This document shows, piece by piece, positions 53,171 to 54,710 of a stretch of 64,000 nucleotides of DNA. Numbering within the stretch: position 1 is the first letter of the stretch; every line of letters begins with the position of its first letter. The stretch lies in assembly GCA_964016885.1 (NCBI GenBank), contig OZ024743.1, positions 371,070,001 to 371,134,000 on the forward strand, written 5' to 3'. This stretch comes from Eledone cirrhosa. Its lineage: Eukaryota. The notes below the pieces were generated by a model. It was given only the letters and a program-made list of their open reading frames with translations, was not told the origin of the DNA and did no database searches. A program made the translations under genes and the position numbers.

Positions 53171-54710
53171 CTTGGCATTTGTCGACCTTGAGAAAGCCTT
53201 TGACAGAGTTCCACGTGCAGTAATCTGGTGGGCTCTTAGAAAACTAGGAGTAGATGAATGGCTTGTGAAAGCGGTACAAGCCATGTATAGGGGAGCAGTC
53301 AGCAAAGTTAGGATTGGCAATGAGTATAGCGAGGAATTTAGCGTACAGGTTGGGGTCCACCAGGGCTCTGTTCTTAGCCCTCTCCTGTTCATCATAGTCC
53401 TGCAGGCAATAACGGAGGAGTTTAAGACCGGATGCCCATGGGAACTCCTGTATGCTGATGACCTCGCACTCATAGCTGAATCTATGGTAGAACTAGAGAA
53501 TAAATTCCAAACCTGGAAGCAGGGACTAGAGAGAAAGGGCCTCAAAGTCAACATGACAAAGACTAAGGTCCTTATAAGTAGACGAGAAAACAGAACCCAG
53601 ATCCCCTCAGGGAAATGGCCTTGCTCAGTATGTAGGAAAGGTGTAGGTAGGAACTCCATTCTTTGCCCCAAATGCAAACAATGGGTACACAAGAGATGTA
53701 GCGGGATCTCAGGAAGCTTAATTAAGAATGTAGGATTCACATGCAGCAGCTGTGCTGAAACAGCAAGCAAACAGCCACAGGAAACAAGTACCACCAATCT
53801 CTGGGAGGGCCCTGTAGAAACAGTAGACAGCTTCTGCTACCTAGGTGACCGAATTAGCAACGGAGGTGGGTGCTCAGAAAGTACAATAACTAGGGTAAGA
53901 ACGGGATGGAAGAAGTTTAGGGAACTACTACCACTGCTAGCTGCAAAAGGCTTCTCCCTCAGAATGAAAGGCAGACTGTATGATGCGTGTATCCGAACAG
54001 CGATGTTGCATGGTAGTGAGACCTGGGCGCTGAAGGTGGAAGACTTACGTAGATTAGAGAGAAACGAAGCCTGCATGCTCCGATGGATGTAATATACGTG
54101 AACGACAAAGCATAAATGAATTGAGAGAGAGACTGAGCATAAGAGGAATCAAATGCTGCGTGCAGGAGAGGCGGTTACGCTGGTATGGACATGTGATGCG
54201 TATGAAGGATGACAGCTGCATAAAAAGGTGCAGAGCACTAGAAGTTGATGGAAACCGCGGAGTGGGGAGACCCAAGATGACTTGGGATGAGGTGATAAAA
54301 GCCGACCTTACCCAACTACACCTCTCAAAGTCATTGACACACGACCGTGACTTCTGGCGTCACGCAGTAATACAGGGTACCCGACCTCCCATGGGTACAT
54401 GCTGAAGCATATAAACAATATGCCCCCCCCCCCCCCCCACCGCAAGGTGGTCGTGGAGGTGCCACGGCAAAAAAGCACCCAGCCCACACTGTAAAGTGGA
54501 CGTGTAGGCGCCACGAAAAAGCACCCAGCACTCACTGTAAATGAGGTTGGTGTTAGGAAGGGCATCCAGCTGTAGAAATCAAGCCAGATCAGTTCCTGTA
54601 TGAGCAAGACATGGTCAGCCGACCAGACACTGCCCACAACAGGACAACCCGTCTAACCCATGCTAGCGTGGAAGAACGGACGTAAAACGGTGATGATGAT
54701 GATGATGATG
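53171..54710 (+). mobile_element. RTE-C LINE (RT half, PHD-like finger, small frameshifting deletion near 54090, 3' UTR, (GAT)n)
   Basis: [28 protein letters not shown] 54121-54405. Confidence 0.92.

Follow-up and report, generated by a model that had tools for sequence, protein, structure and literature searches.

A module of an AGGAAG hairpin and a 48-nt tandem unit lies at opposite ends of sister RTE families and in a SINE: a candidate element for loading of the RTE protein

A module made of an AGGAAG-loop hairpin and an upstream 48-nt tandem unit was found in the 5' UTR of one RTE family (RTE-A), in the 3' UTRs of two sister families (RTE-B and RTE-C), and in the body of a SINE, all of them present in the window, that is, the whole 64,000-nt stretch of DNA that was analysed (source: a 3.0-Gb animal genome, presumably of an octopod to judge by its repeats). 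The position of the module in each family and the conservation of its AGGAAG core out to hagfish RTEs and SINEs are direct observations. In our preferred reading, to which we assign a probability of roughly 0.45, the module may be a cis-acting element of the RTE clade, likely working at the RNA level, and would serve, jointly with the 3' tail, as a further recognition site for loading the RTE protein onto its template. The module described in an earlier note on this DNA is real and was partly misread there: its core has already been published, and the 5'/3' move and the 48-nt unit appear to be new.

The module under study is located within the 3' UTR of a 5'-truncated RTE-C copy coding for RT and a PHD finger. 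The features, in window coordinates, are listed below; PK1 and PK2 denote the two pseudoknots that can be drawn in a unit.

53172..54400, + strand: 3' part of the RTE-C ORF (RT, PHD-finger insert), 5'-truncated, frame broken at 54092; RVT_1 E = 3e-21, PHD E = 4e-7
54437..54450, + strand: upstream partial unit with a PK2 stem-2-like hairpin only, from the sequence
54452..54499, + strand: 48-nt unit 1 of RTE-C, PK1 at 54452-54479 and PK2 at 54480-54499, both drawable intact
54501..54545, + strand: unit 2 of RTE-C, PK1 broken (U.C, C.A), PK2 intact
54546..54578, + strand: conserved core, AGGAAG-loop hairpin at 54546-54570, then the A-rich UGUAGAAA
54647..54712, + strand: RTE 3' tail stem-loop and (GAT)n of the RTE-C copy
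2547..5833, - strand: RTE-A copy with both ends: 5' UTR, ATG at 5634, APE and RT, tail 2615-2575, (GAT)n
5700..5771, - strand: RTE-A 5'-UTR module, PK1 5771-5746, PK2 5745-5726, hairpin 5724-5700
55086..55417, - strand: SINE with head, body, one unit and hairpin (55232-55160), and an RTE-A-type tail
57160..57292, - strand: RTE-B 3'-UTR module; PK1 is intact but shifted in unit 1 and has a broken stem 2 in unit 2; hairpin
60199..60787, + strand: second RTE-C 3' copy with the same module

The strings quoted in the earlier note were present at 54452-54570 in the RTE-C 3' UTR, and its statement that the module is common to three RTE families and a SINE was borne out, AGGAAGGGCA being found in each of them in the window. 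There are 14 copies of AGGAAGGGCA (8 in RTE-B, 3 in the SINE, 2 in RTE-C, and 1 in RTE-A) compared with 1.4 expected, and 0 of 100 shuffles reached 14. The elements were labelled RTE because they have a single APE-RT frame and a microsatellite tail, and because of their protein homologues; a domain search confirmed APE and RT in RTE-A. The SINE head is presumably tRNA-like (judged by eye) and the body CORE-like, and ARAGORN found no tRNA in the head. An Rfam search over the window gave no match at gathering, three stretches yielding matches at the level of chance by E-value, and a DNA search of the source genome with the RTE-C RT region gave no match. Elements of the window also face each other with their tails, separated by (GAT)n/(CAT)n or an AT-rich microsatellite (2460-2580, 39460-39520, and 54690-55100), which suggests that they inserted into each other's tails. 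A fragment of another repeat, with what we take to be a Ceph-domain-like motif, lies upstream of the RTE-C copy (52530-52670, + strand) and also precedes a unit array at locus L204. Two broken long ORFs of the window, 22605-25713 (-) and 30532-35918 (-), are presumably Helitron-like and L1/Tx1-like, respectively.

In the window copy of RTE-A, the module is located 81 nt upstream of the endonuclease ATG, and all 30 RTE-A loci compared (of 40 scored) carry it in the 5' UTR before the ATG with the same layout. The RTE-A homologue at 5746-5771, which had been read as part of a 3' UTR, therefore belongs to the 5' UTR. As many as three units occur there in older A-type copies, and in an older family (L268) the module lies 170 nt before the endonuclease. 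The 3' end of RTE-A passes from the ORF region through a ~45-nt tail into (GAT)n and is without the module. RTE-B and RTE-C, on the other hand, carry the module in the 3' UTR. The RTE-B 5' UTR is a different sequence of ~600 nt, and the motif occurred in 0 of 6 RTE-B upstream stretches, one of which is truncated. When a profile of 55 natural module copies was applied to 8 RTE-B and 3 RTE-C upstream regions (among the latter, only that of L347 resembles a long 5' UTR) and to the RTE-A 3' end, the best E-value was 1.8, compared with 8e-23 and 7e-25 in two positive regions. The RTE-A, RTE-B, and RTE-C proteins form one clade (100/100) and are 70-79% identical, the branching order inside the clade being not settled in this tree of 23 rows, from which two of 22 homologues without anchors were dropped.

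The module was in sense orientation in every copy and at one place in each family examined. Untargeted sequence totalling 1.004 Mb contained 77 tails, of which 60 had a module upstream, 8 followed RTE-A ORF ends, and 9, mostly short fragments, had neither; 10 of 12 SINE heads were followed by the module. Inspection of RTE-B and RTE-C by eye revealed a tail-start remnant right behind the ORF, followed by a spacer, units, hairpin, and full tail, a layout suggesting that a module-plus-tail piece was appended. The module of the SINE is 82% identical to that of RTE-C and 68% to that of RTE-A or RTE-B, so its immediate donor was probably a 3' UTR. The SINE tail is 89% identical to that of RTE-A and 69% to that of RTE-C (the 46% obtained with RTE-B reflects an offset cut and was left out of the comparison), and the SINE kept the module through this tail swap. 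We infer that the 5' position is ancestral, that the RTE-B/C line would have acquired a different, CCAAT-type 5' UTR while retaining the element through a module-plus-tail piece added behind its old 3' end, and that the SINE would have taken a C-type module with an A-type tail. The ideas of a portable module and of RT recruitment, both put forward earlier, fit a module found at either end of sister families and in a SINE body.

The 5' ends of RTE-A vary in their own right. Young copies (window 5833-5990, - strand; L001-L030) start inside a truncated PK2 after a T-run, and many share a further GT-rich stretch upstream, possibly a newly acquired 5' end. Six older 5' ends (L238, L239, L242, L243, L244, and L256) have a common ~110-nt leader with a sharp start, standing before a longer repeat of spacer hairpin and unit. 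This leader presumably resembles a conserved RTE/Ceph-domain piece, and found no support from Rfam or the HDV descriptor.

These positions bear on two other roles. As in the 3' UTRs of tobamoviruses, stacked pseudoknots might stand in for poly(A) or shield the 3' end, and a tandem pseudoknot geometry does stand ~100-200 nt before the non-poly(A) end of RTE-B, RTE-C, and the SINE. However, RTE-A ends in (GAT)n with its module at the 5' end, yet has many copies with open frames of 1,000+ aa, and the module is also 5' in L268 and in hagfish, where the published part seen places the hairpin of RTE-2/4_EBu in the 5' UTR. This suggestion of the earlier note is contradicted as a general role and is very improbable. 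A promoter or enhancer acting as DNA, with incidental pairing, is also improbable, if less strikingly so. It would fit the ancestral 5'-UTR site, most stems being invariant rather than covarying, and the core GGAA and TGTGGT, which we take to be ETS-like and RUNX-like, respectively. A speculation to this effect, that conserved RTE 5'-UTR pieces bind a transcription regulator, stands in the accessible part of Kojima 2018 (PMC5786205). Against it, the sense orientation is always kept, the module is retained in a Pol III-type SINE and in the 3' UTRs of families with promoter boxes of their own, and one double change, in PK2 stem 2, is strand-specific.

The AGGAAG core extends well beyond this genome. 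By eye, 21 of 23 nt equal those in the 5' UTR of hagfish RTE-4_EBu, and the portion of the supplement covered (PMC7245038) contains seven matches: RTE-2_EBu, RTE-4_EBu, and five SINEs (SINE1-1/2-1/2-1B/2-9/2-10_EBu). In these the core is preceded by differing upstream modules, the sequences upstream of it in RTE-2_EBu being unlike those in RTE-4_EBu. As far as the consulted part goes, the stretch with the core was assigned to the RTE 5' UTR (Kojima 2020, PMC7245038), and the core has thus been published, as a piece of the RTE 5' UTR in bipartite SINEs, but no structure was proposed for it; the words "hairpin" and "pseudoknot" are absent from the main texts of PMC5786205 and PMC7245038. A 19-nt hairpin pattern occurred at at least 120 metagenome loci. 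Among the matches listed, a single type of short repeat accounts for 101 of 120; here a plain CAGTG:CRCTG stem leads into the hairpin and an RTE-like tail, and in others the hairpin directly follows a tRNA-like head. Upstream pseudoknots were no commoner than in shuffles (57 of 117 versus 557 of 1170, again among the matches listed, with two bacterial-looking loci and one short locus dropped). In contigs of four related organisms (X12, X15, X16, and X18), the depth of the hairpin stretch was at least 100-fold that of the units, and contigs X5, X7, X9, and X14 were without such an excess; these depths carry no information on expression. The loose-end consensus of one relative has a plain hairpin without CAG:CTG (agreement 0.61), for which a pattern gave 0 matches in the source genome. 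Since the conservation in metagenomes, hagfish, and relatives' contigs covers the hairpin, the hairpin is the ancient core and the pseudoknot unit a local, lineage-restricted addition. Viral contigs gave 14 pattern matches, 0 of them with module-like flanks.

Two side observations concern the hairpin. At L354 (~1525-1580, + strand), a (TTAGGG)n run lies inside the hairpin 5' strand, from its GTTAGG on. In the part of the PMC5786205 supplement seen, the moth RTE 5'-UTR piece HaSE1/RTE-2_DPl has a short stem with an A-rich loop, a GTC...GGCA hairpin, and TGTAAA, a layout similar to that of the module, to which it may be distantly related.

Among the RTE homologues found, all except one are 40-54% identical to RTE-A, the hagfish proteins lying outside this comparison. 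Set against these values, a near-identical core in distant hosts would fit a conserved host partner equally well. Such a partner, a ribosome or initiation factor docking on an element that is IRES-like at the 5' end and a translation enhancer at the 3' end, is an unlikely but serious reading. Viral 3' enhancers act from either end, and the module too is present at either end. According to the Alu-domain model, docking keeps a SINE RNA near the nascent protein, and the SINE here might wait near the nascent RTE protein in the same way. The near-invariance of the core across distant hosts and its location 81 nt before the RTE-A ATG are consistent with docking, as is the hagfish RTE-2_EBu core, which in the published portion used stands behind a 5' end that is twister-like by eye. 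Furthermore, uncapped, twister-cleaved RTE RNA was translated in reporters according to the section consulted of PMC8501958. On the other hand, no Rfam IRES or enhancer match was obtained. RTE-B and RTE-C have 5' UTRs with what we take to be CCAAT boxes and are probably capped.

The 48-nt unit was surveyed in 1.35 Mb of partly targeted sequence of the source genome, which yielded 408 units. There were 125 arrays of 1 unit, 62 of 2, 9 of 3-4, and 7 of 6-33, so that the stacked chain is a 48-nt tandem repeat of 1 to 33 units per array and not a fixed domain. An older variant of the unit has 7,061 exact genome matches, some at an exact 48-bp period. The unit has also given rise to minisatellites of tens of copies (L299, L300, L272, L277, L232, and L204; contig C1 of genome G000 near 212.77 Mb), several of which still end in hairpin and RTE tail.

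These properties raise the possibility, which we regard as doubtful, that the hairpin alone matters, with the unit hitch-hiking as a tandem repeat and its pseudoknots not forming, a reading compatible with any function of the core. It agrees with the arrays of 6-33 units and the 48-bp period, with the shuffle-level pseudoknots upstream of metagenome hairpins, with the plain hairpin of the relative, with the other upstream modules of the hagfish elements in the source as seen, and with the stability of the chain below that of a nested fold (see below). It is countered by three features of the unit: the rarity by chance of the adjacent-pair geometry, the retention of CAG:CTG, and the loss of PK1 through three different mutations, all of them in terminal units that have another unit in front.

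Four of six family units (RTE-C unit 1, RTE-A, the SINE, and RTE-B unit 1) can be drawn with two H-type pseudoknots back to back. Of 1000 dinucleotide shuffles of each unit, 0-1 contained such an adjacent pair, under a descriptor chosen after the sequence was seen, compared with 17-46% for any single pseudoknot. The pseudoknot pair was said to occur twice; it does not do so intact, since PK1 of RTE-C unit 2 has U.C and C.A and unit 2 of RTE-B is without PK1 stem 2. PK1 stem 1 keeps 3-4 central pairs across variants. The inner pair of this stem changes: three lineage variants have a Watson-Crick pair there (G-C, U-A, and C-G) and three a mismatch (U.U, U.C, and C.C), and the same pair is unpaired in 26 of 55 representatives. 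PK1 stem 2 is intact in RTE-A, the SINE, RTE-C unit 1, and, in a shifted form, RTE-B unit 1, and broken in RTE-B unit 2 and RTE-C unit 2. The two stems of PK1 are thus not both kept across lineages, stem 2 being broken in the terminal units of three lineages, each behind an upstream unit. A double change from G-C to A-U, by which one pair of this stem is restored, occurs in one lineage (3 rows, an RTE-B sub-lineage) beside a U.U mismatch, and the neighbouring pair is unpaired in 21 of 55; in one further lineage, the loop strand has been replaced by that of RTE-A.

PK2 stem 1 (CAG:CTG) was invariant in 19 of 19 variants; the variant table was restricted to those seen in at least two arrays, with long arrays cut to two units each. 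About four pairs of PK2 stem 2 are kept through changes from A-U to U-A and from C-G to U.G/U-A. The A-U to U-A double change (13 rows) is one event and strand-specific. The pattern around this pair has 52,527 genome matches, with U-A in 94 of the first 100. For the A-first class there are 1,946 matches, 85 of the first 100 being paired by hand count. The U.U class has 566, with the linked diagnostic base in 51 of 100 by hand count, and the mismatched U.U intermediate did spread to roughly 290 copies. The earlier claim that homologues keep the pairing while changing sequence therefore holds for PK2 stem 2 and fails for the PK1 pair that is mismatched in as many variants as it is Watson-Crick. 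Likewise, the covarying chain is reduced to one helix, PK2 stem 2, for which covariation lends modest support; neither PK2 stem 1 nor the AGGAAG hairpin has a change on both sides. In the hairpin, only one-sided changes were found among the 55 representatives, and flanks paired equally well when swapped as in their cognate combination (864 of 1000 permutations matched the cognate pairing, 21 representatives).

PK2 stem 2 is common to the pseudoknot chain and to a nested alternative, in which it is extended and the CACCCAG strand pairs with the hairpin 5' strand; in RTE-C, PK2 stem 2 of unit 2 is also the start of this competing long hairpin. In an alignment of 55 representatives of 145 terminal units, 83.9% of cells were paired under the chain, and 69 of 500 shuffles attained its covariation score, compared with 83.3% and 0 of 500 for the nested alternative; stem 2 is misaligned in the RTE-A rows, and both scores are inflated by relatedness. 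The nested form is the minimum-energy fold in RTE-A, RTE-C, and the SINE. Under a stacking-plus-penalty model, which leaves out triples, coaxial stacking, and Mg2+, the nested fold was more stable than the full chain with both penalties, in 5 of 5 lineages. RNAalifold returned no consensus fold, and the module region of the RTE-C copy had a fold z of -0.76. What survives of the proposed topology is a drawable geometry; the covarying helix belongs equally to a nested fold that scores as well and has the lower energy in all five lineages under the simple model. PK1 and PK2 are putative structures.

Of the 62 single units, 45 allowed PK1 to be drawn and 51 PK2; the figures were 43 and 61 for the 84 upstream units, and 10 and 66 for the 83 terminal units of multi-unit arrays. 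These counts reflect a few lineages and include decayed copies. The loss of PK1 mainly in terminal units fits redundancy, in which one intact PK1 per RNA would be enough. This pattern is the best, though indirect, sign that PK1 may matter, as the nested fold gives no reason for upstream units to keep PK1.

Comparison with known systems places the module near several of them. The RTE 5'-UTR piece of bipartite SINEs has the same AGGAAG core in the 5' UTR of an autonomous RTE (PMC5786205 and PMC7245038, in the portions consulted), and in both cases a piece is kept between head and RTE tail of an RTE-mobilised SINE. Unlike that piece as so far seen in print, the present one has shifted into the 3' UTR in two protein-coding families and stands behind a 48-nt tandem unit. 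The Ceph-domain piece of Kojima 2018 (PMC5786205) is a different sequence, and the motif is absent from the part of that supplement covered. The RTE 3'-tail hairpin described in the available part of PMC6007223 is a different element, and 5'-UTR swapping is reported for plant RTEs in the section seen of 10.1101/2022.11.04.512097. The earlier note knew of no description of the fold. In the literature searched, partly in excerpt (including PMC9115989, PMC13282606, and PMC3272025, and excluding subscription papers, patents, and Repbase reports), neither the fold nor a 5'-to-3' move of an RTE UTR was described, and the motif string was absent from the main texts; the hairpin core, as noted above, is not new.

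The tobamovirus upstream pseudoknot domain and luteoviral H-type pseudoknots have short stems with 0-1 nt between them, an A-rich loop 3, and a tandem arrangement. The module is like these in geometry alone; unlike them, it is not confined to the 3' UTR, has a variable unit number, lacks a slippery site or frameshift context, and has no Rfam match.

A self-cleaving ribozyme or its relic in the unit is extremely improbable. The first ~75 nt of RTE-2_EBu presumably resemble, by eye, the 3' cleavage product of a twister ribozyme. They lie directly before the AGGAAG hairpin (PMC7245038 supplement file 2, in the part used), the place just upstream of the hairpin that the unit occupies here. Ribozymes of the HDV-like or twister type are also known in RTEs, often at 5' ends (twister in Perere-3, PMC8501958; HDV-like per PMC5786205; both consulted in part), and share with the module a structured RNA near the 5' end, upstream of the ORF. 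They differ in that no catalytic-core motif was found in the module, which lies inside templates that must stay whole. A cleavage role is unlikely because cleavage between ORF and tail in RTE-B and RTE-C, or behind the SINE head, would cut the template. In addition, no Rfam ribozyme match was obtained, and descriptors of our own, run without a positive control, found no twister core in the loci of this genome and no HDV-like fold in the module, with one stray match each elsewhere. The words "twister" and "ribozyme" are absent from the main text of PMC7245038, and PK2 as a twister relic was rejected as a resemblance by eye alone.

The closest functional parallel is with R2, whose protein binds RNA partly by zinc fingers that RTEs are not known to have. 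In the portion consulted of PMC11601368, the A-clade R2 protein binds a pseudoknot-hinge-stem in the 3' UTR with a GGAAAAG hinge, as demonstrated by rescue with compensatory mutants and by cryo-EM. Like that element, the module combines a small pseudoknot with an adjoining purine-rich GGAA single strand in a non-LTR UTR; unlike it, the module belongs to another clade, whereas the R2 element is fixed near the 3' end and its structure was shown experimentally. Because of this analogy (PMC11601368), we favour direct loading of the RTE protein over docking of a host translation factor, although the data separate the two poorly. In the loading reading, the module would be needed in cis and would act as RNA, its core is predicted to fold as a hairpin, and the upstream 48-nt unit would add two small helices, either as pseudoknots or as a switch with the nested long hairpin. 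The loading reading is weakened by the hairpin having no double-sided change and flanks that pair no better as cognates, by the 27 of 74 multi-unit arrays without a drawable PK1 (many of which are old copies), and by the spread of the U.U intermediate of PK2 stem 2. A stronger form, a position-independent RNA loading element in which the hairpin joins a two-pseudoknot unit that switches with the nested hairpin, and which is the reason why SINEs must be bipartite, is speculative and rather doubtful; if it is true, the move from 5' to 3' in RTE-B and RTE-C would be a natural transplant experiment.

One terminal-unit variant alone accounts for the 52,527 exact pattern matches, and the unit seeds minisatellites. 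RTE-mobilised SINEs keep an RTE 5'-UTR piece as well as the tail, according to the consulted part of Kojima 2018 (PMC5786205). For one RTE lineage, this retained piece is now narrowed to ~30 nt, nearly identical in hagfish, and its presence at opposite ends of sister families argues that its job is independent of position. The result is also relevant to gene-insertion tools based on RTEs, in which the template carries both UTRs (PMC13708176, in the part seen). The question of why SINEs keep a 5'-UTR piece thereby becomes a small mutagenesis experiment.
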